Shown piece after piece: positions 43,721-61,345 of a stretch of DNA of 64,000 nt. The translations under genes were made by a program, and so were the position numbers. The stretch's first letter is position 1. Each line of letters begins with the position of its first letter. Source of the DNA: an uncultured Methanomicrobiales archaeon (GTDB taxonomy: Archaea > Halobacteriota > Methanomicrobia > Methanomicrobiales > Methanospirillaceae); NCBI GenBank assembly GCA_963697895.1, contig OY969100.1, forward strand, positions 1,728,001 through 1,792,000. The letters are read 5' to 3'. The notes below the pieces were generated by a model. That model did not search any database and was not told the DNA's origin. It saw nothing but the letters and a program-made list of their open reading frames with translations.

Positions 43721-43734
43721 TTCACAATTGTGAA
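43721..43734. promoter_or_regulatory. Palindromic operator TTCACAATTGTGAA (site 1), between divergent iscS and the APS-reductase-like::sufS gene
   Basis: Perfect 14-bp palindrome (16 bp with flanks), intergenic. Confidence 0.85.
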
Positions 43735-43936
43735 TGCGTATTCAAATGTTGTGAGTGAGTGCATTTAATTGTTCTGTTTGAAGTTCCCAAAAATAATTCA
43801 GAGAAGACAATAACCTGGATTTTCATAACAGCTCCCGGAATTCTTACCTCAAGTCCGAGCTTGACGGTAATACCATGGGGTAGGTGCTCCCTCCTGGACA
43901 CTGATATTATCAAGCTGCCATGTGCACCTTATAGTG

Positions 43937-46564
43937 ATGCGGGATCCCCCGGTGAAAAAGACGCTCTATTGGTGCGACCACTGCGATGTCCCCCTGATCG
44001 GTAAGCATTGCGGATGCGGAAATACGGGAAGGGCGATCTCCCTGCTACAGCCCTATGATGTCCGTCCCGCCCTATCCCATGACACGGAGTTGATCTATTC
44101 GCTTATCAACGAGCGGTTTGGAGATTTACGCCTTCCACAAGTCATTCTTTTGAACAAAACAGGAGGAATTGACCGGAATGACCTGGTGATAACCCATGGA
44201 GAACGATTGGGGTGGCTCTCATTCGATCCGGTAAGCCGGAAGTTCCGGTTTGACCTTGCGCCAGAGGGACTCCCGTTCATCCTTTCGGAAATGAAAAGAG
44301 GAATAATCGATCTCGAGGCCGCGATTCCTTCTTCAGAAGGGAAGCCCTCAGGGAGGATTGGAGGCAAGCGGTTCAGGGTTACAACCCAGGAGCAGGATGG
44401 AACTGTTATCGTGCGGTATCGTAAACAGTTTGGTACTGGAGTCCTGAAGAATGGATATTTGAGGGTAAAGGAGCTGGGAACGGTACCGGAACGGGAATCC
44501 CCCGACCCGGGCTGGGATGTTGTGGTGGCCAGGAATCAGTACCACTTGAAAAACCTGGAGAGAAACGCGATACGGGCTATCCGCCAGCATATGCATGATC
44601 GCCCGAGGGTGAATGTATCATTTTCCGGGGGAAAGGACAGTACCGCGGTCCTTGCACTCGCTCGCAAGGCCGGTGTCCACGAAGCTTTCTTCATCGATAC
44701 CGGGATCGAATTCCCAGAGACCTTGGCATTTATTGAAAAACAGGGGGTAAAGATCGTCAGGAGAGGTGGGGATTTCTGGAGTGCCGTTCAGAAGGCCGGA
44801 CCACCGGCAAAAGATCGCAGATGGTGCTGCAAACTCCTGAAATTGAATCCACTGAAACTACATCTGGCTGAAACGGGCCCCTGTGTCACCATCCAGGGAA
44901 ACCGGTGGTATGAGTCGTGGAACAGGGCAGACCTAGACATCACCAGCCAGAACCCGGCCAATCCACTCCAGCTGAATATCTCGCCAATCCGAAATTGGCG
45001 GGCACTTGAAGTGTACCTCTACCTCTGGTGGCAGAGGATCCCCTACAATCCCCTATACGACCAGGGGCTTGAGCGGATCGGTTGTTACCTCTGCCCCGCC
45101 ATGCTCGAGAGCGAATCTGAACAACTCGAGAAGATACACCCTGAATTTGCGTCGCGATGGAATGATTTTCTCAGAGGTTGGGAAGATTCCCGGGGGCTTC
45201 CCCGTGAGTATCACAAATGGGGCCTTTGGCGTTGGAAGGAACTCCCTCCCAAGATGAAGGGACTCTGCGAAACCCATGGGATCGTGCTTCAGGAAAACCC
45301 TGTTGCTATCCGCCGGACAACTCCCTCCCCTTATGCGGTCTCCGGGAATGTCGCAGTGCCGAAAAAGGAAGATGATAGTATGATCTATGAAGATGTCAGG
45401 AAGGATTTCTCGCTGGTCGCCGACATTATCTACCTGGACAGCGCCGCGACCAGCCTCTCACCGGAACCGGTGCTGGAGGCAGTCCTTGAATTCGAAAGGA
45501 ACTATCGGGCGAACGTCGGTCGGGGGGTGCACCGATTGGCGCAGATAGCCACCCAGCGGTACTGGCACGCCCATGAGAAAGTTGCCCGTTTCATCGGCGG
45601 GGAGAATGGCACCACGGTGTTTACCAAGAATACCACGGAAGCCATCAACATGGTCGCCCGAGGCCTGGGGTTGCGGAAGGGGGACAGGGTTGTCACCACC
45701 ATCCTCGAGCACCATTCAAACCTCGTCCCCTGGATGCATCTCAGGCAAGAAGGAGTAGACCTCGAGATCGTGGGGATCAACAGAGACTATAGTTTGAATC
45801 TATCAGCACTCGAGGCTGCGGTCACCGATTCAACAAGGCTGGTCACTCTATCCCATGTGTCCAATGCCCTTGGGGTGATCTGTCCCGTCGAAGAGGTGGC
45901 CCGGATCTGCCGGGACCAGGGGGCACTCCTCCTCATTGATGGATCCCAGTCCGTCCCACACCTACCCCTAGATATACATCGTATCGGGGCTGATTTTCTC
46001 TGCTTCTCGGGGCACAAGATGCTCGGACCGACCGGAACAGGCGTGCTCTGGATGAAAGAGCCGGTAATTGCGCCAAGCGACCTGGGAGGAGGGATGATCG
46101 ATACCGTATCAGAGGGGGGATACACCCTCGCCGAAGGATACCAGCGGTATGAAGCCGGCACTCCGAACATCAGTGGTGGAATTGGCCTTGGTGCTGCTGT
46201 CGATTACCTGAAAAGGGTAGGTATGGACAAGATAAGGAGCTCTGAAGAACGTCTGACAACACGGCTTATCGAAGGGCTCCGTTCCATCGACGGGGTAACA
46301 GTCTATGCGCATGACGATCCTGCACGGCGAATCGGAGTCGTTTCATTCACCGTTTCAGGATTCCATCCCCACGAGGTGGCACAGGCACTCGATGAACAGG
46401 CCGATATCATGGTCCGGTCTGGGCATCACTGCTGCATGCCCCTCATGCAGCGACTAGGCCTGCCGGATGGCACAATCAGGGCAAGCCTTTACCTCTACTC
46501 TGCGAATCACGAGGTCGATACTCTCCTCGCGACGGGGAAGGACATTGCGAGAAGTCGTTTATAA
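43937..46564 (+). CDS. Fusion: Zn-ribbon + PAPS/APS-reductase-family domain + SufS-type cysteine desulfurase
   Basis: WCDHC..HCGC; SFSGGKDS, RWCCK, RIGCYLCP; then YLDSAAT, FSGHKMLGPTG, EAGTP, RSGHHC; no stop between domains. Confidence 0.88.
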   Translation: MRDPPVKKTLYWCDHCDVPLIGKHCGCGNTGRAISLLQPYDVRPALSHDTELIYSLINERFGDLRLPQVILLNKTGGIDRNDLVITHGERLGWLSFDPVSRKFRFDLAPEGLPFILSEMKRGIIDLEAAIPSSEGKPSGRIGGKRFRVTTQEQDGTVIVRYRKQFGTGVLKNGYLRVKELGTVPERESPDPGWDVVVARNQYHLKNLERNAIRAIRQHMHDRPRVNVSFSGGKDSTAVLALARKAGVHEAFFIDTGIEFPETLAFIEKQGVKIVRRGGDFWSAVQKAGPPAKDRRWCCKLLKLNPLKLHLAETGPCVTIQGNRWYESWNRADLDITSQNPANPLQLNISPIRNWRALEVYLYLWWQRIPYNPLYDQGLERIGCYLCPAMLESESEQLEKIHPEFASRWNDFLRGWEDSRGLPREYHKWGLWRWKELPPKMKGLCETHGIVLQENPVAIRRTTPSPYAVSGNVAVPKKEDDSMIYEDVRKDFSLVADIIYLDSAATSLSPEPVLEAVLEFERNYRANVGRGVHRLAQIATQRYWHAHEKVARFIGGENGTTVFTKNTTEAINMVARGLGLRKGDRVVTTILEHHSNLVPWMHLRQEGVDLEIVGINRDYSLNLSALEAAVTDSTRLVTLSHVSNALGVICPVEEVARICRDQGALLLIDGSQSVPHLPLDIHRIGADFLCFSGHKMLGPTGTGVLWMKEPVIAPSDLGGGMIDTVSEGGYTLAEGYQRYEAGTPNISGGIGLGAAVDYLKRVGMDKIRSSEERLTTRLIEGLRSIDGVTVYAHDDPARRIGVVSFTVSGFHPHEVAQALDEQADIMVRSGHHCCMPLMQRLGLPDGTIRASLYLYSANHEVDTLLATGKDIARSRL

Positions 46565-46629
46565 AACCCTGGCGTGAACCTTACAGGACCGCGATTTTCC
46601 GATCTAATATCCTGATAACTAGATCCTGT

Positions 46630-47613
46630 TCACACATCCCGGAAAGGCGTGAGATCGCACCCGGTACAGGGGAGGCACATCGTCTTTGCTGCACGGGGGT
46701 CAAGATTAAACTCAGCAAGAAGAGCCTTTTGCATCCGTGCCAGCCGGAGCAGGCGATCGGGCGAGGGTCTATTGACTTTCACCTCGCCAGCCCTGAGCGG
46801 GGAAGCGGAGATTGGTCGAAGGATAGGGATCACTCCCCGTTCGGCCAAAAGCCTCACGCCTTCCCTGACGCAGGCATCATCTTCCCCAAGCCCGATGATG
46901 AAATTGGAAAAGACTGCATTCTTCCCGAAAATCTCCACGGCATGCTCCAGGGAGGCAATGATGAACTCAAGGGAGAGGCCTGGGCAGACCCGTGCAAAGA
47001 TATCCCGGTCTGTGGTCTCAACATTTTACTTGATCTCGTCAGCCCCGGCAGCAGCAAGGATTTCTGAGGAAGTGGTTGTCGGGTATACCGAGACCCCGAT
47101 GGGGAGATCGAATTGTTCCCGGAGCACTCTCACAACCTCTGCCATTCTTAAAACCTCCTTCCCGGGCGTATCGGCAACCCCGCTTGTCAATGAAATTGCT
47201 TTAAGGGTCCCCCCGGCAGCAGCCTCTTCGACCTTTCTTAAGACGGTTGCTCTTCCCTTGATCTTCCCCTGCAGTCTTGGCACCGGGCAGAACTTGCAAT
47301 CATAGATGCACCGCTCGCTGATAGTAATGTACGCCTGATCGGGGCAGTGACAGAGTGATGGTTCAAGCGTTCCATGGGTGATCTCAGTACCGTTCAGGAC
47401 CGCTACTACCCGGTTTCCATCGGGCATAATGTTAAGTGAAGATGCCGGATTGATGGAGAGCCGGACACGGTGATCCCCGGACCGGAGAAAGAAGGAGGCC
47501 CCTCCCGCGCCGGGACCTGCTGTAGCAGTCGTCTTCAGGGACCCTGTGATAAGCGCCTCATCGATCCGTGCACTCCCGATGCTTAGCAGTAGGGCTTTTT
47601 CCTCAGGGGTCAT
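46630..47613 (-). pseudogene. Biotin-synthase-related radical SAM protein interrupted by an in-frame TAA at 47026-47028
   Basis: CIYDCKFC core and C-terminal CLPCTGC; both halves are in the same frame and read EIK*NVET. Confidence 0.75.
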
Positions 47614-47762
47614 GGTATGATATTCCTCTGGTTACAAAGATCCTCTGATCGAGGGTGATCGGTCTCCGGTATTGGAATGGAGAGTAGGCCCACGACGAGA
47701 GATGACTGTCTGTTCCTGATTTCGGCTGTTCAGGATGGGTATCCGGATGCTCGTCTGATGCA

Positions 47763-47804
47763 TTCACAATTGTGAATTACAATACAATGATTAACAATTG
47801 TGAA
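47763..47804. promoter_or_regulatory. Operator pair: TTCACAATTGTGAA (47763-47776) and TTAACAATTGTGAA (47791-47804)
   Basis: 28-bp spacing; the second site abuts TATATA (47805-47810); between divergent radical SAM and nadA. Confidence 0.85.
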
Positions 47805-47907
47805 TATATAACTCTGATGATCAAGTCCGGCCGCCAGCCATGAAAAACGTCCCTGGTTATGGCTGGACCAGTATAAAGGGAAGACCAGAGCAGACCTGAG
47901 GAGAAGA

Positions 47908-48819
47908 ATGACTGATCGCAACACGCTCCGGAGGGAGATCCTTTCCCTCAAAGAGGAATGGAACGTTATCATCCTTGCACATAACTACCAGAATGCCGAG
48001 GTTCAGGATATCGCCGATCTGGTCGGGGATTCGCTCGAACTTGCACGGGCTGCAGGGTCAATGGAAGGTGCGGTTATCGTGTTCTGCGGTGTTGACTTCA
48101 TGGCAGAGACGGCTTCGCTCCTTTCACCGGACAAGACGGTTCTTCTGCCAGCAATTGATGCCTGCTGCCCCATGGCAGAGATGGTGACCTCTGGCGAACT
48201 TGCCGTCTTGAAGGACAGGTATGCGGATGCCGCTGTGGTTTCTTACGTGAATACTACGGCCGAAGTGAAAGCGGTGAGTGACATTTGCTGCACCTCAGCC
48301 AATGCGGTTAAAGTGGTAGAATCTCTCCCTGAATCACGGGTTATCTTTGTTCCCGATCGGAACCTTGCCAGTTATGTTGCCCGACATACATCCAAAATAA
48401 TCCTTCCCTGGGATGGCTACTGTATTGTTCATGATCGCATCACTGTTGAGGATGTCCTCAGGGAGAAAGCCCAGCATCCTGATGCTGAATTGCTTGTCCA
48501 TCCCGAATGCCGTCCCGAAGTGGTTGACTGTGCTGACCACGTATTCTCCACTTCGGGAATCATCAGGCACACCTGCGAAAGCCAAAAAGAGGAGTTCATA
48601 ATCGGAACTGAAGTCGGGATCCTCCACCGGATGAAGAAACTCTGCCCTGAAAAACGAATTTTCCCACTCTCTCCAAAAGCAATATGTGCGAATATGAAGA
48701 AGATATCCCTCGAAAAGGTGCTTACAGCCATGGAAAGGATGGAACCACGGGTTACGGTTCCACCTGACATTGCAGCACCAGCCCGTCGGGCAATCGAACG
48801 GATGCTTGCGATCTCCTGA
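47908..48819 (+). CDS. nadA: Quinolinate synthase
   Basis: ILAHNYQ, VGDSL, CGVDFMAE, CPMA, YVNT, CTSANA, CIVH, HPEC, CANMK. Confidence 0.96.
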   Translation: MTDRNTLRREILSLKEEWNVIILAHNYQNAEVQDIADLVGDSLELARAAGSMEGAVIVFCGVDFMAETASLLSPDKTVLLPAIDACCPMAEMVTSGELAVLKDRYADAAVVSYVNTTAEVKAVSDICCTSANAVKVVESLPESRVIFVPDRNLASYVARHTSKIILPWDGYCIVHDRITVEDVLREKAQHPDAELLVHPECRPEVVDCADHVFSTSGIIRHTCESQKEEFIIGTEVGILHRMKKLCPEKRIFPLSPKAICANMKKISLEKVLTAMERMEPRVTVPPDIAAPARRAIERMLAIS

Positions 48820-48971
48820 GCCTAACCTTGGAACGGATATAGAGTCCTCTGACCTGCGGTCCCCCATGGCTGGGAAGAAGAATGATTCTGAAGGACCGTT
48901 AGCCGGTCGGAGGAGACTGAGACGATGAACGGTGTACGCTATAAGAATACCCGTTCATCCCTCTCAACCTC

Positions 48972-50009
48972 TCAATCGCTGCCGGTAACACTCTCGAAGA
49001 ATACAGGCCAGAAGGGGTCTTGCTCTGGCATGGCAATCTTTTCTCTTTGGCCATTCCTTCTCGTAATCTGTCTGTATCCGGGATCACCGGTGACCTTCCC
49101 GATAACTGATGCGGGGATGCCGGCACTTCTTAACGCCTCGATGATGCCGTCAGTAGATTCAGGTCCCGCGGTGATCAATAGTGATCCTTCTGCAATCGCC
49201 GCAACAGGATCTATCCCGAAATGATCGCAGACCATCTTTACTTCTTCGGGATAAATGAACCGGGCTTCATCAACTTCAATTCCCACTCCGCTAGCCTCGG
49301 CGATCTCGAACAGGCCGCCGATTACCCCGCCCTCGGTGGCATCGTGCATCGCCGTGACTCCCCCGGCAGCCATCGCGATAAGCGCATCATCAACCACGGT
49401 CATCTGATGGACAAGCTCTATGGCTTTGACTACGAGGGAGCCCGGATACTGATCACGGAGGTCATCTTCCCTGAGGACCGATAAGATACCGGCTGTCTCG
49501 ATGGCGGGTCCCTTGGTGAGAATCACTGTATCCCCGGGCCGTGCACCGGCCGGAGTGACATACTCACCTCGGCGTGAGATCGCAAATACCGTGATCCCCC
49601 CGATGGTCGGCGCTGCAAAGCCCGGGTAATGACCGGTGTGGCCCCCGACAATAGCAATCCCGAGATCACGTGCGGCACGGTCGATCGATTCCACTACGGT
49701 GATAAGATCCTCCCTGGAGAACTCTGGGGGCATCAGGAGGGAATAGGTCATATACTGTGGTTTCACTCCCATGACCGCGATATCGCTTGCGCCGATATGC
49801 ACGGTGTACCAACCGAACATCTCCAGGGGCTGGCCCGGAATTGCAAAGATGGGGTCTTCGGCAACGATCAAAACCTTTCCATCCCCGATATCAATGACCC
49901 CCGCATCAATGCCTGGCATCGGGGGAACGATGATATGTTCATCCTTCTTCCCGAGTTTCGGTAGAATGACCGATGAGAATGTGCTCCCGTCGATCTTCCC
50001 GATCTTCAT
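48972..50009 (-). CDS. AIR synthase/PurM-superfamily protein (HypE/ThiL-like)
   Basis: GIDAGVI, ASDIAVMG, VGGHT, GARPGD, AMHDATEGG. Confidence 0.8.
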   Translation of the reverse strand: MKIGKIDGSTFSSVILPKLGKKDEHIIVPPMPGIDAGVIDIGDGKVLIVAEDPIFAIPGQPLEMFGWYTVHIGASDIAVMGVKPQYMTYSLLMPPEFSREDLITVVESIDRAARDLGIAIVGGHTGHYPGFAAPTIGGITVFAISRRGEYVTPAGARPGDTVILTKGPAIETAGILSVLREDDLRDQYPGSLVVKAIELVHQMTVVDDALIAMAAGGVTAMHDATEGGVIGGLFEIAEASGVGIEVDEARFIYPEEVKMVCDHFGIDPVAAIAEGSLLITAGPESTDGIIEALRSAGIPASVIGKVTGDPGYRQITRRNGQREKIAMPEQDPFWPVFFESVTGSD

Positions 50010-50614
50010 TCAGACCGCCTCCGTTGATAGGCTCGTGCAATCCCTATCATCTCATCAACCACGGAGACAGGGTCTCTCCCCACAAGTACTGTAACCGGTT
50101 CCTTTCCTATGGCACCCGTCTCGTAGAAGAGATTAGGCACCCGGCCACCTGCAGCGCGGATCGCCTCTCCCACTTTCCATGGCATGGACGCCCCCTCTTC
50201 CTCCTTCATGTCATCTGGTTCATTTCTCCGGTCGATCACGCTGAAGATCCACCCTTTCTCCAGAGAATAATCCTTCAGCCAGGCAGCGAGTGCGGGGTCA
50301 TTTGCAAAATTGATCCCTGCCCTGATTGATGGATCCCTCTTGCGTAGTTCAAGCAAGAGCCGCGCCATGTGGCTCGATGCACCGAATCTTGGCATTCCCG
50401 CCGCATGCGGCATTCCGTTCACAACCGTGATCCTCCCGTCTATCGCAAGAACATCATCAGGACTCCGGGCACGTTCCTTCGCATACACGAGATTGGTTCT
50501 CACTTCAGGGATCAACGATGTAAATTCCCTGCAGGATTCAAGCATGTAGAGCGCAATGCGCATTTTTTCAAACATCGCAACCGCTTCTTCAGTATCGTCC
50601 TCTCCCTCCATCAT
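50006..50614 (-). CDS. Stand-alone ThiN-like (thiamine-phosphate synthase family) domain
   Basis: LIPEVRTN, GRIT, FGASSHMARLLL, DRRNEP, SMPW, GKEP. Confidence 0.85.
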   Translation of the reverse strand: MMEGEDDTEEAVAMFEKMRIALYMLESCREFTSLIPEVRTNLVYAKERARSPDDVLAIDGRITVVNGMPHAAGMPRFGASSHMARLLLELRKRDPSIRAGINFANDPALAAWLKDYSLEKGWIFSVIDRRNEPDDMKEEEGASMPWKVGEAIRAAGGRVPNLFYETGAIGKEPVTVLVGRDPVSVVDEMIGIARAYQRRRSE

Positions 50615-50744
50615 GGAAACTCCCTTCGAATTCTGTCTTATGTAATAGATCGGTCTGGTTCCGGGTTATTATGCAGGGGGATCTCAGAGCACGGGATGGA
50701 CGATTGAATCCATTCCTGCCTGGTCGCCCATGTATCCAGAACAT

Positions 50745-50758
50745 TTCACAATTGTGAA
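50745..50758. promoter_or_regulatory. Palindromic operator TTCACAATTGTGAA upstream of the thiN-like unit
   Basis: Perfect copy directly downstream of a minus-strand TATA-like AGTATATC (50761-50768). Confidence 0.85.
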
Positions 50759-50873
50759 TTGATATACTTTGCCACCGTACACTTCTCATACACTCGACAG
50801 AGCCCTGATTAGAAATACGTTCCTTGCTTTGGGGATCTTGCACTGCAGTACGAGGCTTGCAGGGTAGTGTTCA

Positions 50874-51650
50874 CTACGGAGTCGACTGCTCCTTCTTTTT
50901 GGAGACTTCGATCCGTTCCGGATGCGTGTACACGTTCATCTTATCGCCACGGGCAAATCCGACGATGCTGAGCCCGTTTTTATCGGCGATCTCTATTGCG
51001 AGAGTAGTTGTCGCACCCCGTGAGATAATGATGGGAATATTGGCAATCAGGCACTTCCGCGCCATCTCCGAGGAGATCCGCCCGGACGCGATGATGAATG
51101 TGTTCGATAGGTCAATTCCGTTTCTCAATGCATACCCAATGACCCTGTCCAAGGCATTGTGTCTCCCGATATCCTCAGATCCGCTGATGATTTTTTGGGC
51201 GCCAACAAGCGCAACGACGTGGATTCCTCCTGTTATTTTATAAAGTTCGGAGTTGAGGGTGTTTTTCATCATGTCCGTAATGAATGCAGTGCTGATAGAG
51301 AAAACAGAATGAATTTTGGGGAGTTTTTCTGGATCGATATACGAGGCACTTCCCCCGCATCCCGAAAGGATCGTTTTTTTCGGGCCGAGGACTTTGAACA
51401 GGTTTGTGGTGATCACACTGATCCGGTTCTTATCCAATTTTATTGATTCAATCTCGTCAGCCTTCCTGATTACCTGTTCGGTGAAGAGGAAGCCGGTGAC
51501 GAAGTCTTCAATACCATCAGGGCTCATCATTGCTGTCATCATGTGCCGCCCGTTCACAAAGAGAGCGTATGGTATCTCTTCGACGACTTCATGGAGGATC
51601 CGTTCAGATATTCCCCCAATGATCCGGATGCAGGGTACCTTACGATACAC
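50874..51650 (-). CDS. fdhD: Formate dehydrogenase accessory sulfurtransferase FdhD
   Basis: VVEEIP, GFLFTE, SGCG, TGGIH, EDIGRHNALD, SGRISSEM. Confidence 0.93.
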   Translation of the reverse strand: MYRKVPCIRIIGGISERILHEVVEEIPYALFVNGRHMMTAMMSPDGIEDFVTGFLFTEQVIRKADEIESIKLDKNRISVITTNLFKVLGPKKTILSGCGGSASYIDPEKLPKIHSVFSISTAFITDMMKNTLNSELYKITGGIHVVALVGAQKIISGSEDIGRHNALDRVIGYALRNGIDLSNTFIIASGRISSEMARKCLIANIPIIISRGATTTLAIEIADKNGLSIVGFARGDKMNVYTHPERIEVSKKKEQSTP

Positions 51651-51713
51651 CTGTCACACCCTCCTCTGTCCGTTGGCCAAGATTAGAGATGATTCCGGGT
51701 ATCGCATGTTCCA

Positions 51714-52523
51714 TCACTTGATTAACACCTCATCCATGCTCCCGCTCCGGTAACCTTCAAGATCCAGTGTAATATACGAAATCCCTAACTTTCTGAATTC
51801 TTTCGCTATCTCGTCTCTCATACCAGCGATCCTGGGTATATCCCTATTTTTTGCTTCAATTCTCGCAATTCCGGAATGCATCCTCACCCGAACCTGGAGA
51901 AACCCTTTGGAGTGAAGATAGTCTTCCGCAACTTCAATCATCCGGAGGCACTTTTCAGTTATCTCTTCTCCGTAGGGAATTCGAGAGGAGAGGCAAGCGG
52001 CGGAAGGTTTGTTCCAGAAATCGTACCCGCATTCCCGGGCAATATTCCTGATATCTTCTTTGTTGATCCTCGCATCGATAAAGGGGTGCACAATCCCCTC
52101 TTCAGTACTGGCGATGATCCCCGGGCGGTGTTCATTGATGTCAGAGAGATTTATCCCATCGGCAACACAGTAAAGGCCAAGTTCGTGAGCCCTCCTTTTC
52201 AGGATTTGTGCATCTGTCTTTTTACAGTGGTAGCAGCGATCGGGAGCATTTCTTCTGATTGTATCATTTATGGCATTCTCCCGGATGATTTCAAACGAGA
52301 GGCCGAGACTATAACCGATACGCTCCGCTTCGATTACTGCCGATCTCGGGACAAGGGGGCTGTCAAGAAAGACACAGTGGGCTCTCTCATCCATCACCAC
52401 TTTTGCCACTGCTGCCAGAAGAGCACTGTCTACCCCGCCCGAATAGGCAATGAGCATGGATTTCCTTATGCCAATCTGTTGCTTCAGGGCTTCATACTTG
52501 CAGCCGTTTCCCTCTTTGTCCAT
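51714..52523 (-). CDS. larE: ATP-dependent sulfur transferase LarE
   Basis: AYSGGVDS PP-loop, RCYHCK, HRPG, KPSAACLSSRIPYG, QVRVR, DLEGYRSGSM. Confidence 0.93.
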   Translation of the reverse strand: MDKEGNGCKYEALKQQIGIRKSMLIAYSGGVDSALLAAVAKVVMDERAHCVFLDSPLVPRSAVIEAERIGYSLGLSFEIIRENAINDTIRRNAPDRCYHCKKTDAQILKRRAHELGLYCVADGINLSDINEHRPGIIASTEEGIVHPFIDARINKEDIRNIARECGYDFWNKPSAACLSSRIPYGEEITEKCLRMIEVAEDYLHSKGFLQVRVRMHSGIARIEAKNRDIPRIAGMRDEIAKEFRKLGISYITLDLEGYRSGSMDEVLIK

Positions 52524-52576
52524 GATGGAACGAGTATCTCCGATGGAAGGAATTCAGTGGGATGAGCCAAAAAAAA

Positions 52577-52906
52577 TCAGGAGTCGCACTCCGATGGTTC
52601 ATACCCGCACTGGTCCCCTTCCTCCCTTAGTTGCTTGCAGATATCACAGATCCGGTCAACGAGGTTTTCCACTTTTCCGTCCTTGAGGTCCTGTGCAAGG
52701 CGTTCAATCGATCGTTTTACTTCATCCTCAAACTCGATTCGGTACCCGCGTTTACCGGATATATACTGGGATACCGCAGAGGGGGCAATCTCGAGCATTT
52801 TTGAGGCCTCGATCTGGGATACTCCGCACCTTACCAGTTCGACGGCAATTGCCGCCCTGATTGCGGGCAAAACATCCCATACAATCTTTTGACACGGTGC
52901 CTGCAT
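52577..52906 (-). CDS. Small Cys-rich XRE-like HTH transcriptional regulator (ThiR-N/COG2522-like)
   Basis: PCQ....VLPAIRAAIA.EL...GVSQ.E..KML.IAPSAVSQYISGKRG; C87-x2-C90, C100, C107. Confidence 0.85.
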   Translation of the reverse strand: MQAPCQKIVWDVLPAIRAAIAVELVRCGVSQIEASKMLEIAPSAVSQYISGKRGYRIEFEDEVKRSIERLAQDLKDGKVENLVDRICDICKQLREEGDQCGYEPSECDS

Positions 52907-52947
52907 ACTCTCACTCTCTGAGTGTAATCATCCATAGATGTTTGGCT

Positions 52948-52961
52948 TTCACAATTGTGAA
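52948..52961. promoter_or_regulatory. Palindromic operator TTCACAATTGTGAA upstream of HTH-larE-fdhD
   Basis: Perfect copy ~40 bp before the HTH start codon. Confidence 0.85.
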
Positions 52962-53102
52962 TCAACTTAGGAACCCAAAATAGTTTGCACGCTCTTTTTT
53001 TTTCATTTTGGAACGATCACTCCCCTTTAAGAGATCCATTGGAGGATCATCTACCGCTTACGAAATCTATAAATAATCACAATAGTTATCAAATAAGGTA
53101 AG

Positions 53103-53116
53103 TTCACAATTGTGAA
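53103..53116. promoter_or_regulatory. Palindromic operator TTCACAATTGTGAA immediately 5' of tRNA-Cys
   Basis: Perfect copy 6 nt before the tRNA; TATAAATA at 53068-53075 is followed by a degenerate copy ATCACAATAGTTAT (53076-53089). Confidence 0.85.
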
Positions 53117-53122
53117 TTCAAT

Positions 53123-53194
53123 GCCCGGGTGGCAGAGTGGTGATGCGTCAGACTGCAGATCTGATCAATATGAGTTCAATTCTCATCCCGGGCT
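53123..53194 (+). tRNA. tRNA-Cys (GCA)
   Basis: Acceptor GCCCGGG/CCCGGGC + U73; anticodon arm TCAGA-CTGCAGA-TCTGA (G37); T arm ATGAG-TTCAATT-CTCAT. Confidence 0.9.
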
Positions 53195-53210
53195 TTCAGG
53201 TGACACAACA

Positions 53211-54575
53211 ATGGATAACAGGATAGATAACGTCTTTCGTGCCCTCTTTACCCTTGAGGACCTGCGGGAAATCCACCGCAAGGCACTCCCCACGGGTATG
53301 GATGCTAAAGAGGAGGACCAGTACCGGGAAACCCTGGCCCGCCTGAAAAGGATCATCTCTGATATCGAGCGGGGGAGACCCGCAAAGGAAATCACGAAAA
53401 TCGCCGGAACCATTGATATCCGTACCCGTGAGGAGAATTACATCAATATTCAGCCCATCCAGGCTGCAGGACGGCTCACACCGGAGGCACGGAAGGCGGT
53501 TATTGCATATGGAGACGGGTATTCGACCTGTGACGCCTGCCGAAAACCCTTCCGCCTCGACAAGATCTCAAGGCCGGGGATAGCCGAGTTCCATGCAGAC
53601 CTTGCAAAGTTCGTGAATATGGACCAGGCCCGGGTCGTGCCTGGGGCGAGGCGCGGGTTCCAGGCAGTCACGGGGACATTAGTGGAGAAAGGCGACAGCG
53701 TAATCGTATCCGCACTTGCTCACTATACCGAGTTCCTCGCAGTGGAAAATGCCGGAGGGATCGTTAAGGAAGTGCCCCTCAACGAGAAAAATATCGTAAC
53801 GGCAGATGCGATGGCACAAAAAATCGAGGATGTCAAACGGGAGACGGGAGAACTCCCGGTACTCGTCATGATCGACCACATCGATTACCAGTTCGCAAAT
53901 GAGCACGAGATCGCCGGAATCGGAAAAGTCGCGCACCAGTACGACATCCCGTTCCTCTATAATGGTGCCTACACTGTCGGGGTCATGCCGGTCGACGGTA
54001 AGAAAATAGGAGCTGACTTTGTCGTCGGCTCCGGACACAAGAGTATGGCATCGGTCGCACCGTCCGGGGTGCTTGCGATGACTGATGAATGGGCACCTTC
54101 CGCGCTCCGCACCACCGCGATGGTCGGTGACCTTACCAAGAGGAAGTTTGGCATCAAGGAGGTCGAGATGCTCGGATGCACGCTGATGGGCGGGACCCTC
54201 ATTTCCATGATGGCCTCGTTCCCGATCGTCAAAGCACGGACGCAGATTTGGGACAATGAGGTAAAAAGGTCCAACTACTTCATCGACCGTCTGTTGAAAA
54301 TTTCCGGCAGCACAGTGCTCTCTGAGTATCCACGCAAGCATACCCTCACGAAGGTGGACACAACAGGAAGCTTCGATACTGTGGCAAAAACTCACAAACG
54401 GCGCGGGTTCTACTTCAGCGACGAATTGTCATCCCGCGGGATCGCCGGAGAGTTTGCCGGGGCGACGAGGACCTGGAAGCTGAACACCTACGGGCTCAGT
54501 GATAAGAAAATCCGGTACCTTGCGGACGTTATCACCGAAATTGCGGAAAAATACGAATTACCCGTCTGTAAATGA
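53211..54575 (+). CDS. pscS: Sep-tRNA:Cys-tRNA synthase with N-terminal helical extension
   Basis: NIQPIQAAGRL, GDGYSTCDAC, GARRG, AHYT, GSGHKS, LGCT; ~65-aa extra N-terminal domain; start at ATG 53211. Confidence 0.92.
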   Translation: MDNRIDNVFRALFTLEDLREIHRKALPTGMDAKEEDQYRETLARLKRIISDIERGRPAKEITKIAGTIDIRTREENYINIQPIQAAGRLTPEARKAVIAYGDGYSTCDACRKPFRLDKISRPGIAEFHADLAKFVNMDQARVVPGARRGFQAVTGTLVEKGDSVIVSALAHYTEFLAVENAGGIVKEVPLNEKNIVTADAMAQKIEDVKRETGELPVLVMIDHIDYQFANEHEIAGIGKVAHQYDIPFLYNGAYTVGVMPVDGKKIGADFVVGSGHKSMASVAPSGVLAMTDEWAPSALRTTAMVGDLTKRKFGIKEVEMLGCTLMGGTLISMMASFPIVKARTQIWDNEVKRSNYFIDRLLKISGSTVLSEYPRKHTLTKVDTTGSFDTVAKTHKRRGFYFSDELSSRGIAGEFAGATRTWKLNTYGLSDKKIRYLADVITEIAEKYELPVCK

Positions 54576-54584
54576 GGACCAACA

Positions 54585-55883
54585 ATGTCAGACAAGAAAT
54601 TCCGTTTAGGAACGACCGCCCTCCATGCAGGGCAGGTACCCGACCCAACCACCGGGTCACGGACTGTACCGATCTACCAGACGACCTCGTACATGTTCAA
54701 GAACACGGAGCATGCTGCAAACCTATTCGGGTTAAAAGAGCTCGGGAATATCTACACCCGGCTTATGAACCCGACAACGGATGTCTTCGAAAAGCGCATT
54801 GCTGCAATTGAAGGAGGGACCGGCGCCATCGCAACAGCATCGGGAGCTGCGGCAATAACCTACGCGATCCTGAACATCACTCGTCCCGGTGACGAGATCG
54901 TCTCAGCAGACAACCTGTATGGCGGTACGTACGAGTTCTTCCACTATACCCTCCCGAAGTTCGGGCGGTACGTCATCTTCGTAAACTCCTCAAAACCGGA
55001 AGAATTCAGGAAAGCGATCACCGGGAAGACAAAGGCGATCTATGCTGAGACCGTCGGCAACCCGAAACTGGATGTCCCTGACTTTGAGAAGATTGCGCAG
55101 ATAGCCCATGATGCCGGCGTTCCCTTTATCGTTGACAACACGACCGGAGTCGGTCTTGTCCGCCCGATAGATCACGGTGCTGATGTCGTCGTCCATTCGG
55201 CGACCAAGTACATCGGCGGTCATGGGAACTCTCTCGGGGGAGTCGTCGTCGACTCTGGCAAATTCGCGTGGAATAATGGTAAGTTCCCCGAGTTCACCGA
55301 TCCGGACCCGAGTTATCACGGCCTGAAATACTGGGACACGTTCGGAAATTTTCCCGGCCTCGGGAACGTGGCATTTGTCTTCAAGATCCGGGTCTCACTC
55401 ATGAGGGATACCGGTGCCGTACTCAGCCCGTTCAATGCCTGGCTTTTCCTCCTCGGCCTTGAGACCCTGCACCTGCGGGTACCCCGCCACTCTGAGAATG
55501 CCCTTGCCGTCGCGGAATTCCTTAACAACCACCCGAAGGTGGCCTGGGTGAACTATCCGGGACTTCCCGATAACCCAAACCACGAGCTCACAAAAAAATA
55601 CCTTGTAGGCGGGTATGGCCCACTTGTCGGGGTTGGTATAAAGGGCGGTGAAAAGGCAAGCAGAAAGTTCATAGACAGCCTCAAGCTATTCAGTAACCTC
55701 GCTAATATCGGAGACTCGAAGAGCCTGGTCATCCACCCGGCGAGCACGACTCACCAGCAACTCACGGTCGAGGAACAGGCAAAGACCGGTGTCACGCCAG
55801 ATGCAGTTCGGCTCGCGATCGGTACCGAAGATATCGAAGATATTCTCTCAGACCTGGATCAGGCATTGGAAGGGGCTTGTTGA
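54585..55883 (+). CDS. metY: O-acetylhomoserine aminocarboxypropyltransferase/sulfhydrylase
   Basis: [51 protein letters not shown]. Confidence 0.93.
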
Positions 55884-57359
55884 TGATCAAAGGTTCGGTG
55901 GGTATTGTGGAGACGAAGTATTACCAACATCAGTACATACTCGAACTAGAAAGCGGGGAAACCCTGCCTTTTCTCACAATCGCCTACGAGACCTATGGAA
56001 AACTGAACCGGGACAAGAGTAACGGGATTCTGCTCTGTCATGCCCTTTCAGGGGATGCCCATGTCGCCGGATTTCATGAAGGCGATGAAAAGGCCGGGTG
56101 GTGGGATAGTGTCGTCGGCCCCGGGAAAGCAATTGATACAGATCGTTACTTTGTCGTATGTTCCAATGTGATCGGCGGGTGCAAGGGCTCCACTGGTCCT
56201 TCGTCCCCTCATCCTGAAACCGGGAAGCCCTATGGGTTATCCTTTCCGGTCATCACCATCGGTGACATGGTGACAGTCCAGAAGATGCTCCTCGATCACC
56301 TGGGGATAAAGCGGCTTTTCGCCGTTGCGGGAGGGTCGATGGGAGGAATGCAGGCACTGCAATGGACGGTCTCCTACCCCGACATGGTAAAAAAAGCGAT
56401 CATCATCGCAGCAACCGGGTATTCAACACCCCAGCAGATCGCGTTTAATGAAGTGGGGAGGAAGGCGATCATCTCCGATCCCGACTGGAACAACGGGGAT
56501 TATTACGGAAGATCGCTGCCCATCCATGGGCTTTCGCTGGCACGGATGGTCGGTCATATCACCTACCTGTCCGACGAGTCGATGCACGCAAAGTTCGGAA
56601 GGGCGCTGCAGGGCAAGGAGCAGATCGGGTTTGACCTCTCCACCGACTTTCAGGTGGAGAGTTACCTCCATCACCAGGGCGATACATTTACCCGGCGGTT
56701 TGATGCGAACTCATACCTGTACATCACCAAGGCGATCGACTACTTTGATCTGACACAAGACGATTCACTCACAAACGGCCTCTCGGGGGCAAAGGCAAAC
56801 TTCCTCGTCATCTCGGTCTCCTCCGACTGGCTCTACCCTCCGTACCAGTCGCAGGAGATCGTATCAGCGCTGGCGGCAAACGAGCGGGATGTTCATTACT
56901 GTGAGATACGCTCCAATTATGGCCACGATGCCTTTCTGCTGGAATCCGGGCAGCTCGAACTACCTTATCGGGAAATTCCTCTCCTCAACCGTGGTGGAGG
57001 ATATAATGACCCGGAATATCCAGATTATCGAGGAAGGAACGACGATCGCAGTCGCGGCGCGTTGCATGATAACGGTGGGGGTAAACCACCTCCCTGTTCT
57101 TACCAGTAATGGGAAACTCGTAGGGATTGTTACATCATGGGACATTGCAAAGGCAGTGGCCTCCAATTACCTGTGGCTGGATGAGATCATGTCAAAAAAT
57201 GTAATCACGAGCACGGTGGGTGAGTCAATCGAGTCGGCGGCAAAGAAGATGGAAGAACATCAGATCTCGGCGCTTCCGGTAATTGATGAACAGGAACATG
57301 TTATCGGGCTTGTCACGAGCGAAGCAATCAGTATGCTCATCGGTGGGTGGAATACGTGA
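55883..57359 (+). CDS. metX: Homoserine O-acetyltransferase fused to a C-terminal CBS pair, frameshifted (+1 at ~56957)
   Basis: [31 protein letters not shown]; removing G56957 joins ESGQL|NYLIGKFL to the CBS pair. Confidence 0.88.
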
Positions 57360-57871
57360 GAATTCTTTCCATTCATGCCGATTCAATGTGGTACCGTGCA
57401 ACACAGAAGACGCAAATGGCCGAGTACATCCAGCAGAGGGAAGATCTGATGAAGGAATGTGTCGTGCTCTTCTGCTGTGTGGAAAAGCTGGACGAGCGGA
57501 GCCCGGATTACGTGATCGCAAGCGCGATAAGGAACATCCTCGAACGGCTGAACAAATTGAAGGTGCACCAGGTGATGATCTATCCGTACGCACATCTCAC
57601 GAGCACACTCGGCTCTCCGGAGTGTGCGCTCCGGATCCTCATAGGTATTGAAGAAGGGCTTCGTGCATCGTCGGTGGAGGTCAAACGGGCGCCGTTTGGC
57701 TGGTATAAGGAGTTCGAGATCCGGGGAAAGGGACACCCGCTTGCGGATCTCTCCATGACAATCTGCCCGTATGAAGGGGTCGAATGTGATTTCCAGTGCC
57801 CGTACTGCAAAAATCCGATCAAGGAAGGCGATCTCCAGAGAACCCGACCTGTGGCGCACATCATGAATTAG
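57356..57871 (+). CDS. Free-standing archaeal ThrRS editing domain (DTD-like) with Cys-rich tail
   Basis: [31 protein letters not shown]...KGHPLADLS; tail CPYEGVECDFQCPYC. Confidence 0.85.
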   Translation: MRILSIHADSMWYRATQKTQMAEYIQQREDLMKECVVLFCCVEKLDERSPDYVIASAIRNILERLNKLKVHQVMIYPYAHLTSTLGSPECALRILIGIEEGLRASSVEVKRAPFGWYKEFEIRGKGHPLADLSMTICPYEGVECDFQCPYCKNPIKEGDLQRTRPVAHIMN

Positions 57872-57897
57872 ACGGTACCCGGGGATGGAATATTCGA

Positions 57898-59010
57898 ATG
57901 ACAAGGCAATGGCTCGTCCGATATTCGGAACTGTTCCTGAAATCAGACCCGGTTCGTCGTCGGTGGGAACAGGTCCTCATTGCGAATATCCTGAAGGTAT
58001 CGCCGGAGATCCAGGTAAGAAGCGAGCGTGGACGCATTTGGCTTAGCGGAGAGGTGATTCCGGAGTGGCTGGAAAAAATCTTCGGCGTTATCTCGTTCTC
58101 CGAGGTCGAGCAGGTACCACTCGGACGGCTCGATTCGGTCCTTCCGGATTACTGCCGTTGTAAAGGGATGGAAAAGGTCAAAACGTTTGCCATCCGAATG
58201 AAGCGGGTTGGGAATCATACCTTCACTTCGCATGAAAAAGCGATCGAATACGGCAACCTGATTCGAAGAACGTTTCCACACCTGAAAGTGAACCTTGCGA
58301 CTCCGGATAAGGAGATATTCATTGAGATCCGGGGATACGAATGTTACCTGTATGATTCGATGATCAAGGGGCCGGGGGGTCTTCCCCTGGGCGTTGAAGG
58401 AACACTGGTTGCGCTCCTGTCCGGTGGAATCGACTCGCCGGTTGCCACATGGATGATGATGAAGCGGGGGTGCAGGATCATTCCGTTGTTCATCGCCCTC
58501 GACAGTGTCCTCGATGAGACTAACCGCGAGCGTGCAGAGAGCGTCGTCGAAGCACTACGGGCGTATCAGCCGGATATCGAGCTCTGCGTGATCACCGATT
58601 CGTATCTTTCCCGTGCAAAACAGGAACTCACACGGGTCGGTCTGGAAAAATATACCTGTATCTTCTGTAAACGAAGGATGTACCGGGTCGCAGAAAAGTT
58701 CGCGCGAAATGCGGGGGCGAAAGGGTTCGTTACGGGTGAATCCCTCGGACAGGTCGCGTCCCAGACACTGGATAATCTCATGGTCCTGAACGAGGCAGCG
58801 ACCATGCCGGTATACCGCCCCCTCATCGGGTTTGACAAGGAAGAAACAATCCGCATCGCACGGGAGATTGGCACCTTCGCCGCTTCCATCACACACGCAA
58901 CCGGATGTACAGCGGTTCCGAAGGGACCCTCAACGAAGGCAGATCTCGACACAATCAGACAGATTGAAAAGGAACTACTTTCCTTCAGTGATACTATTCC
59001 CTTATCCTGA
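57898..59010 (+). CDS. thiI: tRNA 4-thiouridine synthase
   Basis: VRYSELFLKS, THUMP domain, LSGGIDSPVA, CIFC, TGESLGQVASQT, RPLIG, C-terminal GC. Confidence 0.93.
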   Translation: MTRQWLVRYSELFLKSDPVRRRWEQVLIANILKVSPEIQVRSERGRIWLSGEVIPEWLEKIFGVISFSEVEQVPLGRLDSVLPDYCRCKGMEKVKTFAIRMKRVGNHTFTSHEKAIEYGNLIRRTFPHLKVNLATPDKEIFIEIRGYECYLYDSMIKGPGGLPLGVEGTLVALLSGGIDSPVATWMMMKRGCRIIPLFIALDSVLDETNRERAESVVEALRAYQPDIELCVITDSYLSRAKQELTRVGLEKYTCIFCKRRMYRVAEKFARNAGAKGFVTGESLGQVASQTLDNLMVLNEAATMPVYRPLIGFDKEETIRIAREIGTFAASITHATGCTAVPKGPSTKADLDTIRQIEKELLSFSDTIPLS

Positions 59011-59069
59011 TATTAGGGTTCGGGGTACATGTCGGGTCATTCGGTTACTGCCCGAAAAGATATTCCTGA

Positions 59070-59354
59070 TCATGGCTTTTTTCTCGCCTTCGCCCGGATC
59101 ATATCGGCTTCTTCCGCGGATTCGACACGGAGGATATAGGTCCCGTAACAGGGTTTTGTATAGGGGAGGATGACCACCGGACCTTCCAGGCCGATTGAGA
59201 TGGGGGGCACGCCGATCAAACATTTCTCAAAGATTTTAAAGCCGGGATCCACGTAGTATCTCTCCTCACAACGATCCTCGATATATTTCCGCGATTCCTT
59301 AAATGAGACTCCGAAAGCGAGAACTTCGTATCCTAGGTCTTCGACGCAGCCCAT
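59070..59354 (-). CDS. DUF1894-family protein
   Basis: MGCVEDLGYEVL, IGVPPI.IG, PYTKPCYGT. Confidence 0.75.
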   Translation of the reverse strand: MGCVEDLGYEVLAFGVSFKESRKYIEDRCEERYYVDPGFKIFEKCLIGVPPISIGLEGPVVILPYTKPCYGTYILRVESAEEADMIRAKARKKP

Positions 59355-59806
59355 CCAAACACCTCGTCCATTTTCCTCCGCAGCTGCCCGGGATTATGCA
59401 CAGCTTTCTCCACAATCTTCTCACAGGGTACCTCGAGTTGTTCCCCCAAAGCCTCGGCCTCCCTTCCGAAGATCACTGCAATAAGCCGCCCTCCGGTCAG
59501 AAACCGAACGGTAGTTGCATACGAAATCCCGGCATCACTGTGGGCGAAGACAATGCAGAGCTTTGGTTGACGTTTTTTTGTCGAAAGTTCCTCAATGCAC
59601 CGGTCCAGTTCCACGAATTTTTTAATATACATCTTTGCCGGATCAGATACCCGCAACAACGTTAATACCGCCGCATTACCAGCAACCACCAGGGGCTGCC
59701 CGCTCTGGTTGAACCGATACCCACAGTACAGTGCAAGCGCCTGTTGAACCGGTACCTCAGGGCAACCAAGAATTAACAATGGTTCCGTATTTTCAGTATC
59801 ATTCAT
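59333..59806 (-). CDS. DUF1890-family protein
   Basis: LILGCPEVPVQ, GNAA...LLRVSDP, FAHSDAGISY, AVHNP. Confidence 0.78.
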   Translation of the reverse strand: MNDTENTEPLLILGCPEVPVQQALALYCGYRFNQSGQPLVVAGNAAVLTLLRVSDPAKMYIKKFVELDRCIEELSTKKRQPKLCIVFAHSDAGISYATTVRFLTGGRLIAVIFGREAEALGEQLEVPCEKIVEKAVHNPGQLRRKMDEVFGWAASKT

Positions 59807-59894
59807 AGAGATCCCACAGGGACAAAGCCGGATTTGCATTGGAGCGTCGCTGATTTGTAGTCAGCCAACGAGTTGTTATTCAGCTTCTGTTCGG

Positions 59895-59921
59895 TTCACA
59901 ATTGTGATTCACAATTGTGAA
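59895..59921. promoter_or_regulatory. Tandem operators TTCACAATTGTGAT (59895-59908) and TTCACAATTGTGAA (59908-59921)
   Basis: Head-to-tail copies sharing one base, upstream of DUF1890. Confidence 0.85.
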
Positions 59922-60088: not shown

Positions 60089-60102
60089 ATAACAATTGTG
60101 AA
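60089..60102. promoter_or_regulatory. Near-consensus operator ATAACAATTGTGAA upstream of sufS-cysM
   Basis: 12/14 match, directly before a TTTTTAT TATA-like box (60105-60111). Confidence 0.7.
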
Positions 60103-60173
60103 CATTTTTATCCCATGCGATTCTCATGAGTATTGCACATTCCGTGGATACCTTTTCTCCAGGGTGATTGTTG

Positions 60174-61340
60174 ATGTATGATCTACAAAAGTTACGCCAG
60201 GAATTTCCGATACTTTCAAAATGTGTCTACCTAGACAGTGCCTCGACCAGCCAGACACCCCGGTGCTCTGTCGATGCGATGTGTGAATATTTCTTCGAAT
60301 ATGCGGCGAACCATGGAAGAGGTGCTCATCACCTCGCCCGGAAGACAACCGAAAGGTACGAAGAGACCAGAACCAGGCTCGGAAATTTTCTGAAGGTCAC
60401 TCCGGATCACATTATATTCACAAAGAATACCACAGATGCGGTAAATACGGTTGCAAACGGGCTTACGTGGAAACGGGGCGATGAAATTATCACCACGTGG
60501 CTGGAACATCATTCAAATCTTCTTCCCTGGATGATGCTTAAGCGAAAGGGTGTCCGACTTACGATCATCCCACATGAGAACGGATATCTCGATCCCCATG
60601 CAATCCAGGAGGCAATCTCATCAAAGACGAGATTGATTGCGGTCACCCATATGCCCAATATCCTCGGAACGGTCCAACCGGTCGAGGCAATCGGTCGAAT
60701 CGCCCATGATGCCGGGGTGCCTGTGGTCGTTGACGGAGCGCAATCCGTCGGGCATTTTCCTGTTGATGTTACTTATATCGATTACCTGGCAATTCCCGGT
60801 CACAAAGGACTTCTCGGGCCGCAGGGTACTGGGGCGCTTTATACGAAAGATCCAGAGTCTTTGAATTGTTCGATCTACGGGGGAGGGATGGTGGTATCCG
60901 TCTCGCATAATGAAGTAAAATTACTCCCTCCCCCAGCCAAATTTGAACCAGGGACGCCAAATATCCCGGGAGTTATCGGGCTCGGTCCGGCAATTAATCT
61001 CGTCAGTTCAATGGGCGTCAGGAATATTCACTCTTATGAGAAGAAACTCGGCTCTCAGATGTATGCGGGATTGGTAAGAATTCCCGGCGTGAGTATATAC
61101 AGCCCGCACGGAACCGGCGTAGTTTCATTCAATGTCGCCGGGCATAATCCGAATGAATTTTCCCGGAAGCTTGATGATTACCGGAAGATCTGTGTGAGGA
61201 GCGGTATGCATTGCGCAGAACCACTGGCGAGCAGTTATCATTGTGAAGGGACGATCCGGGCCTCGGTCGGTTGTTATACCACGTCTGATGAAGTTGATGA
61301 CCTGATCGAGAGTGTCCGGCATCTGAGCGGGAACGATTAG
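60174..61340 (+). CDS. Group II (SufS-like) cysteine desulfurase
   Basis: YLDSAST, EHHSNLLPW, DGAQS, GHKGLLGPQG, EPGTP, RSGMHCA. Confidence 0.9.
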   Translation: MYDLQKLRQEFPILSKCVYLDSASTSQTPRCSVDAMCEYFFEYAANHGRGAHHLARKTTERYEETRTRLGNFLKVTPDHIIFTKNTTDAVNTVANGLTWKRGDEIITTWLEHHSNLLPWMMLKRKGVRLTIIPHENGYLDPHAIQEAISSKTRLIAVTHMPNILGTVQPVEAIGRIAHDAGVPVVVDGAQSVGHFPVDVTYIDYLAIPGHKGLLGPQGTGALYTKDPESLNCSIYGGGMVVSVSHNEVKLLPPPAKFEPGTPNIPGVIGLGPAINLVSSMGVRNIHSYEKKLGSQMYAGLVRIPGVSIYSPHGTGVVSFNVAGHNPNEFSRKLDDYRKICVRSGMHCAEPLASSYHCEGTIRASVGCYTTSDEVDDLIESVRHLSGND

Positions 61341-61345
61341 ATCTT

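Follow-up and report, generated by a model that had tools for sequence, protein, structure and literature searches.

Based on the comparisons laid out below, we propose that a 109-aa, cysteine-rich helix-turn-helix (HTH) protein encoded in the window (the whole 64,000-nucleotide stretch of methanogen DNA analyzed here) is probably a sequence-specific regulator of a conserved methanogen sulfur regulon, which it would repress with a set of cysteines as its sensor. The gene is paired with a 14-bp palindromic operator, the operators stand before genes of sulfur, cysteine, methionine, and Fe-S metabolism, and both gene and operator are conserved in relatives; judged from sequence, the protein is a real and well-supported candidate regulator. 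It is likely the switch for sulfur supply in these archaea and is apparently undescribed. To our knowledge, the regulation of sulfur uptake, of cysteine and homocysteine synthesis, and of Fe-S assembly in methanogens is largely unknown, and the analysis yields a candidate protein and an exact operator for methanogen sulfur control.

Our literature searches found no paper on the 109-aa regulator, its Methanosarcina orthologue, or the motif. The accessible portions of three papers on methanogen Fe/S handling (PMC7585200, PMC8516115, and PMC10846266) name no such regulator, and the first notes that in many Methanomicrobia iscS2-iscU2 are grouped with genes for methionine and NAD. The name MA2719 occurs in PMC7585200 outside the main text, and a label in Fig. 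S1 of that paper may be relevant to what was already known. MA2716, a guess at the Methanosarcina orthologue, was ruled out, being quinolinate synthase.

A palindromic operator in the promoters of a sulfur gene cluster

Annotation and a site search together resolve the segment from 40.5 to 62.3 kb of the window into nine transcription units with at least one site before each. The units and sites are as follows (window coordinates; a strand is given for genes only).

40505-43621, minus: iscS-iscU-thiF-moaE, behind the 43721 operator
43721..43734: operator, between iscS-iscU-thiF-moaE and the PAPS-reductase-like/SufS fusion gene
43922-46564, plus: PAPS-reductase-like/SufS fusion gene, behind the 43721 operator
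46630-47613, minus: radical-SAM gene, behind the 47763..47804 operators
47763..47804: two operators, their centers 28 bp apart, one of them perfect and the other with 1 mismatch, between the radical-SAM gene and nadA
47908-48819, plus: nadA, behind the 47763..47804 operators
48972-50614, minus: ThiN/AIR-synthase-like operon, with a stand-alone ThiN gene at 50006-50614
50745..50758: operator, upstream of the ThiN/AIR-synthase-like operon
50874..52523, minus: LarE-like PP-loop sulfur transferase and FdhD sulfurtransferase, following the regulator gene on the same strand
52577..52906, minus: 109-aa Cys-rich HTH regulator gene (ORF translation), first gene of the HTH-LarE-FdhD operon
52948..52961: putative autoregulatory operator TTCACAATTGTGAA, 41 nt upstream of the regulator ATG
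53103..53116: operator, 7 nt ahead of the first gene of the SepCysS operon, tRNA-Cys
53123..53194, plus: tRNA-Cys (GCA), one of two copies in the genome, heading the SepCysS operon directly behind the operator
53211..59010, plus: target operon of SepCysS, O-acetylhomoserine sulfhydrylase (metY), homoserine O-acetyltransferase (metX), a CBS protein, a ThrRS-editing-domain-like protein, and ThiI
59070-59839, minus: DUF1890-DUF1894, behind the 59895..59921 operators
59895..59921: two operators with a one-base overlap, 56 nt upstream of DUF1890-DUF1894
60089..60102: ATAACAATTGTGAA, a variant of the operator, 66 nt before the SufS-like desulfurase/cysteine synthase unit
60168-62275, plus: SufS-like desulfurase and cysteine synthase genes, behind the 60089 operator

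An earlier note, made from the letters of the window, had described a perfect palindrome about 40 bp upstream of the regulator, and TTCACAATTGTGAA is indeed found 41 nt before its ATG. The palindrome is 14 bp long, with an invariant core, ACAATTGT, and occurs nine times in the window with at most two mismatches, against an expectation of 0.16 +/- 0.39 (nine was reached in 0 of 100 shuffles); all nine of these sites are intergenic. Across the whole genome (2,091,725 bp), the six perfect copies all fall within window positions 43721-59921, in promoters of the 22-kb sulfur, cysteine, methionine, and Fe-S cluster, as do eight of the nine copies with at most one mismatch; the reversed-pattern control gave 0 copies in the whole genome. 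The ninth copy with at most one mismatch, at genome position 1898783, was dismissed as an operator, as it sits inside a 338-aa ORF outside the cluster.

The annotation of the segment holds no other recognizable transcription factor, as had been noted, and no IscR/Rrf2 gene lies next to iscS; across the whole genome, no Rrf2/IscR domain (PF02082) scores above the Pfam cutoff. The pairing of the regulator with the LarE-like and FdhD genes is kept in most of 20 Methanomicrobiales loci. Among 60 loci from several families, 15 of 25 tRNA-Cys genes have an operator site within 60 nt, which points to a regulated supply of the tRNA scaffold for cysteine synthesis. The proposed regulon would also bring under one sulfur-related control several enzymes whose role is unknown, namely the LarE-like protein, DUF1890/1894, the PAPS-reductase-like/SufS fusion, and the free ThrRS-editing-like domain.

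The candidate regulator protein

Translation of the ORF gives the six cysteines that had been reported (positions 5, 27, 87, 90, 100, and 107), and the start is in keeping with homologues, which agree in the MxAPCQ N terminus. The segment SAVSQYISGKRG, which had been placed in the HTH, corresponds to residues 43-54. The description of this HTH as XRE-like holds for the relatives and marginally for the protein itself, which scores 21.3 bits (E 2.8e-4) against Pfam HTH_3 (PF01381) and does not reach the curated cutoff of 23 bits, whereas one related protein (L110, 33 bits) and the HTH-ThiN proteins (25.9-33 bits) exceed it; some precomputed matches also carry PF01381. Since relatives pass the cutoff, the family as a whole belongs to PF01381, with the 109-aa protein just under the line. 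An NCBIfam search with the protein returned nothing meaningful, and a PDB sequence search returned 0 matches. The family is large (963 representatives at E<=1e-3), with some clusters labelled Chlorobiota. The idea that the XRE-like protein is an antitoxin or part of a mobile element was ruled out, given that there is no partner toxin gene and that both the chromosomal context and the regulon are conserved.

The AlphaFold model, built with 94 relatives in the alignment, has a pLDDT of 87.2 and predicts five helices (residues 4-26, 31-38, 42-50, 61-75, and 82-97), followed by a disordered, Cys-bearing tail (residues 98-109). In VIA-align, residues 8-51 match the three-helix HTH of the DeoR DNA-binding domain 7bhy (Z 6.7, rmsd 1.2 over 44 residues); the wide search gave domain-level matches only (Z<=6.7), with three-helix HTH domains favored, and matched the C-terminal hairpin only at the level of common helical arrangements. 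Foldseek against the PDB found nothing at E<=0.001; its top matches are XRE proteins, which are weak (E 0.13-0.6, TM about 0.3; ClgR 3f51, E 0.13). The best structural matches are stand-alone XRE/HTH_3 regulators (such as ClgR and HigA) and SorC/DeoR-type N-terminal HTH domains, but none of these matches the whole protein and none has the Cys set. A homodimer prediction scored 0.01, which counts neither for nor against binding.

Co-occurrence of gene and operator in Methanomicrobiales

Of 41 Methanomicrobiales genomes searched, 38 have some match to the 109-aa protein, and 24 have an orthologue, defined as a match at E<1e-20. The genomes without one carry only a paralogue, roughly 35-42% identical, which the window's genome has as well. 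The perfect 14-mer is present in 15 of the 41 genomes (reversed control, 0). The earlier note had suggested looking for co-occurrence of orthologue and motif across genomes, and the two do go together: the degenerate form WTMACAATTGTKAW is found in 23 of the 24 genomes with the orthologue versus 3 of the 17 without it. One genome with the motif but no orthologue, G002, is only 73% complete. Another, G017 (98% complete, in 400 contigs), has one site between sulfur genes and no orthologue in searches that included a profile search, and is either a real exception or a case of loss of the orthologue. In that genome, the operator (G017:C191, locus L128) lies between SufS-like/fdhD genes and thiF-moaE, and these genes lack the regulator gene found in front of them in other genomes. 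Eleven degenerate matches in G027 (L154-L163) were dismissed as operators, as their identical 25-nt flanks mark a repeat element; this repeat family, on G027:C1, holds TTAACAATTGTTAA at its center and mimics an operator in pattern searches.

The site is also conserved in position. Of 20 fetched Methanomicrobiales loci, 18 have it, with at most two mismatches, immediately before the orthologue. No site was found upstream of the orthologue in G006 and G013 (checked at <=2 mismatches) or in G023 (checked with the degenerate pattern alone). A search with a 13-row alignment returned close Methanoregulaceae only, in 80 named records, 79 of them with enough upstream DNA; the site is upstream of the orthologue in 76 of these 79 loci, perfect in 61, and 41-50 nt from the start codon in 72. 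Elsewhere in relatives' genomes there are 20 further sites, 14 directly flanking homologues of the same sulfur genes and 6 flanking other ORFs. Co-occurrence and the conserved site before its own gene strongly support the proposal, already made in the earlier note, that the 109-aa protein is the cognate, autoregulated regulator.

The Methanoregula orthologue promoters (L021-L100) have a second conserved box, TACAATATATTA, directly downstream of the autoregulatory operator, which may be an extra half-site or a leader element.

Operator and recognition helix beyond the order

The family extends well past Methanomicrobiales. In a 201-genome sample of the phylum, 136 genomes have a match to the 109-aa protein, including all 21 of the Methanosarcinaceae, and proteins of identical sequence are deposited under the names Methanosarcina, Methanohalophilus, and Methanolobus, with no annotation beyond "transcriptional regulator," "helix-turn-helix domain-containing protein," or "hypothetical protein." All six Methanosarcinaceae loci have core-conserved variants upstream of the gene (TTCACAATTGTGAG, TTCACAATAGTGAA, and others), with further sites at iscSU, SepCysS-metY-metX, and nadA. 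Sites of the TAACAATTGTTA type are found in four other families (f10, f14, f15, and f16), and several loci of f10, f14, and f15 have core-conserved variants. No site was found upstream of the regulator gene in L107, L108, and L115-L119. Methanosarcinaceae include genetically tractable members, and since the family has both the orthologue and the same operator, the idea is directly testable there.

We compared the operator with residue 41, at the start of the recognition helix, in 140 rows, 22 of which lack a site by the criterion used. The residue is Ala in 81 of 81 orthologues with a TTCACAATTGTGAA-type operator (C/G at positions 3 and 12) and Thr in 20 of 20 with a TTAACAATTGTTAA-type operator (A/T at positions 3 and 12), a match that amounts to only two changes on the gene tree and therefore carries no statistical weight; among eight mixed operators, it is split 4 and 4. 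One genome, G036, holds both paralogues (G036:C1:221369-221671 and 698593-698883), the Ala41 type behind TTCACAATTGTGAA and the Thr41 type behind TTAACAATTGTTAA. The match is suggestive of a specificity link between protein and operator.

These observations bear on whether the palindrome is instead bound by a different transcription factor encoded elsewhere, with the 109-aa protein merely a member of the regulon that has targets of its own. G017, which has a site and no detectable orthologue, would fit such a factor, as would the distant paralogue with a similar recognition helix that every Methanomicrobiales genome carries. However, 14 of the 17 paralogue-only genomes lack the motif, the site keeps its fixed distance of 41-50 nt before the gene in 72 of 79 loci, and operator variants track residue 41 of the 109-aa protein itself. 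We consider a different factor very unlikely and continue with the 109-aa protein as the one that would bind the palindrome.

Promoter layout and proposed mechanism

Alignment of 96 distinct promoters on the site reveals a conserved A/T box that lies 17-21 nt before the site's first base, and the other sites in the window likewise adjoin or overlap A/T boxes. Archaeal TATA boxes are centered about 26 nt before the transcription start, so this spacing would put the start site inside the operator. An operator over the start site is a layout typical of archaeal repressors that block polymerase recruitment. Since the operator covers the predicted start site, the 109-aa protein most likely represses, keeping RNA polymerase off the promoter.

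We thus posit a mechanism in which dimer binding, repression, the cysteine ligand, and the direction of the switch are those that we infer. The 109-aa protein would bind as a dimer to the 14-bp palindrome TTCACAATTGTGAA, which sits on or next to the predicted start sites of nine transcription units, the protein's own operon and eight others, and the bound protein would keep RNA polymerase off these promoters. The units under its control would be those for Fe-S assembly (iscSU), cysteine desulfurases, and tRNA-dependent cysteine synthesis (tRNA-Cys and SepCysS), along with those for homocysteine synthesis (metY and metX), cysteine synthase, and sulfur transferases (LarE-like, FdhD, ThiI, and ThiF/MoaE); the [4Fe-4S] enzymes NadA and the radical-SAM protein would likewise belong to the regulon. 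In this model, C5, C87, C90, and C100 form the sensor, as a metal or Fe-S site or as a reactive-thiol site, whose occupancy would report sulfur and Fe-S sufficiency. Under good supply, the protein would stay on the DNA, and as supply fails, it would fall off.

The cysteines as a candidate sensor

The six cysteines differ in how widely they are kept among 127 family representatives and 118 distinct orthologues.

C5: 105 of 127 family representatives; 118 of 118 distinct orthologues
C27: 9 of 127 family representatives; 78 of 118 distinct orthologues
C87: 102 of 127 family representatives; 118 of 118 distinct orthologues
C90: 100 of 127 family representatives; 117 of 118 distinct orthologues
C100: 53 of 127 family representatives; 114 of 118 distinct orthologues
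C107: 49 of 127 family representatives; 80 of 118 distinct orthologues

Based on these counts, the conserved set is C5, a C-x2-C at 87-90, and C100. Among the six cysteines listed in the earlier note, these four are near-invariant and C107 is often present, but C27 turns out to be lineage-specific. The order of helices in the predicted model would allow C5, at the beginning of helix 1, to come near C87/C90, in the early part of helix 5.

The same regulator and regulon might be served by cysteines of a different kind. The four could hold a structural zinc, with the signal sensed elsewhere (for example, through a partner such as the co-transcribed LarE-like enzyme) or with no ligand at all, the protein providing autoregulatory dampening. 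Cysteine conservation fits zinc as well as it fits Fe-S, longer family members have extra C-x-H...CxxC tails resembling zinc sites, and a natural read-through fusion of regulator and LarE exists. In contrast, the protein has only one CxxC pair, and its other two ligands would be single cysteines far apart in the sequence; widely spaced single ligands are more like known Fe-S sensors (WhiB-type) than like a zinc ribbon. ThiR-type relatives, which sense through ThiN, lack C5 and the CxxC, and this fits a division in which the stand-alone form would sense through its Cys set and ThiR through ThiN. We regard structural zinc as unlikely, if a serious contender.

Alternatively, the cysteines could act as a thiol switch (through persulfidation, polysulfide bridging, or a disulfide) that senses sulfane sulfur or redox state. 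The regulon has many enzymes that form persulfides (three cysteine desulfurases, ThiI, and FdhD), and the C-terminal hairpin is weakly like the chains of CsoR, FrmR, and CstR (Z about 5.3, rated a common arrangement). That resemblance is nevertheless at noise level for helical hairpins, and four conserved cysteines exceed what such switches usually need, so that we hold a thiol switch to be rather improbable. The reading that we favor is still that of a repressor whose Cys set would report sulfur and Fe-S supply.

Comparison with known regulators

Rodionov and coworkers are said to have described ThiR, in 2017, as an archaeal HTH-ThiN regulator of thiamine genes acting on palindromic operators. 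The statement in the earlier note that the HTH is of the type found in ThiR agrees with BLASTP, in which residues 1-106 of the 109-aa protein align with residues 3-112 of the ORF at locus L150 (E 2e-10, 26% identity); haloarchaeal genomes of the same phylum encode such proteins of about 300 aa, with HTH_3 above the cutoff and a ThiN domain. The alignment takes in the 109-aa protein as a whole and the N-terminal ~112 residues of haloarchaeal HTH-ThiN proteins, the two share the signature P-x-E..V...LP..R...A..L...G.(S/T)Q...A..L....(A/S)AVS.Y, and both would be local regulators on palindromic operators, as ThiR reportedly is. They differ in that the 109-aa protein ends at residue 109 and has no ThiN (PF10120) match, in that its C5 and C87-x2-C90 are missing from the ThiR-type proteins examined, and in that its target genes are those of sulfur, cysteine, methionine, and Fe-S metabolism, with only ThiI and the stand-alone ThiN touching thiamine.

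The likeness raises the idea of a split ThiR, in which the 109-aa protein would provide the DNA-binding half and control thiamine metabolism together with the stand-alone ThiN protein (50006-50614). Homology to the N-terminal module of HTH-ThiN proteins and the presence of a ThiN gene behind one operator are what one would expect of such a pair. The regulon, however, consists of cysteine, methionine, Fe-S, and sulfur-transfer genes, with no thiC or thi4 among the targets; ThiN occurs in only 2 of 20 Methanomicrobiales loci; and a search for longer forms of the subfamily gave no ThiN fusion, its one match being a LarE fusion. We give a split ThiR almost no credence, and a sulfur regulator that shares its DNA-binding module with ThiR is the reading carried forward.

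In its working, the proposed regulator resembles IscR, the bacterial [2Fe-2S] regulator of the Rrf2 family. Both would be autoregulated repressors with a Cys-ligated sensor that reports Fe-S sufficiency, and there are sites in the iscS promoter region (43721) and in the protein's own promoter (52948); this is a likeness of working, not of membership. Both the isc and the own-promoter sites are also present in L002, L007, L008, L009, L013, L105, L126, L131, and L133. Unlike IscR, the 109-aa protein has no Rrf2 winged helix (PF02082) but a three-helix HTH and a helical hairpin, and its regulon also spans cysteine, homocysteine, and tRNA-Cys genes. The IscR cluster is ligated by three Cys and one further residue; the 109-aa protein has four conserved Cys.

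We speculate further that the protein is a fold-unrelated archaeal counterpart of IscR, with an Fe-S cluster on C5/C87/C90/C100. It would be one master repressor coupling Fe-S assembly, desulfurases, tRNA-dependent cysteine synthesis (including a dedicated, operator-controlled tRNA-Cys), homocysteine synthesis, and the sulfur relay to sulfide/Fe-S status, conserved from Methanomicrobiales to Methanosarcinales. ThiR, in turn, would derive from this DNA-binding module through replacement of the Cys sensor with a ThiN domain. Taken as a whole, this is a tentative extension, which we consider possible but would not bet on.

The bacterial regulators CymR and SufR respond to sulfur or cluster status by repressing genes of cysteine metabolism or of Fe-S assembly. 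Neither is of the same protein family as the 109-aa protein, both are from bacteria rather than archaea, and CymR reportedly senses through a partner, CysK. Set against these systems, what sequence comparison suggests as new is an archaeal candidate repressor of sulfur and Fe-S genes that has an unrelated fold and would sense through Cys.

Further observations on the cluster and the family

Several gene products of the cluster, and two relatives of the regulator, are worth describing in their own right. The product of 43922-46564 joins a PAPS-reductase-like PP-loop domain and a SufS-type cysteine desulfurase in a single 880-aa chain, a fusion conserved in L008, L011, L014, and L133. The radical-SAM gene (46630-47613) is a single frame with one in-frame stop at window 47026-47028 (minus strand), which replaces a conserved Tyr of the L008 orthologue (ADEIK*NVET versus ADEIKYNVET) and is either a nonsense mutation or a sequencing error. 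Within the SepCysS-metY-metX operon, window 57347-57871 encodes a homologue of the archaeal ThrRS editing domain (PF08915) that is free-standing and has a CxxCxxC-like tail at its C terminus, and this gene recurs beside SepCysS-metY-metX in many loci (e.g., L002, L008, L109, L111-L113, and L134).

In a metagenome, the 397-aa protein P0271 is a natural fusion of the regulator with the LarE-like protein, and its linker resembles an intergenic spacer that has come to be translated, as by read-through once the stop codon was lost. A 102-aa paralogue (PC...CDIC), found in all Methanomicrobiales searched, is encoded outside the window at G000:C1:1961678-1961986, where it lies behind a small ORF resembling another HTH protein and behind a GTTAACAGCGTTAAC palindrome.
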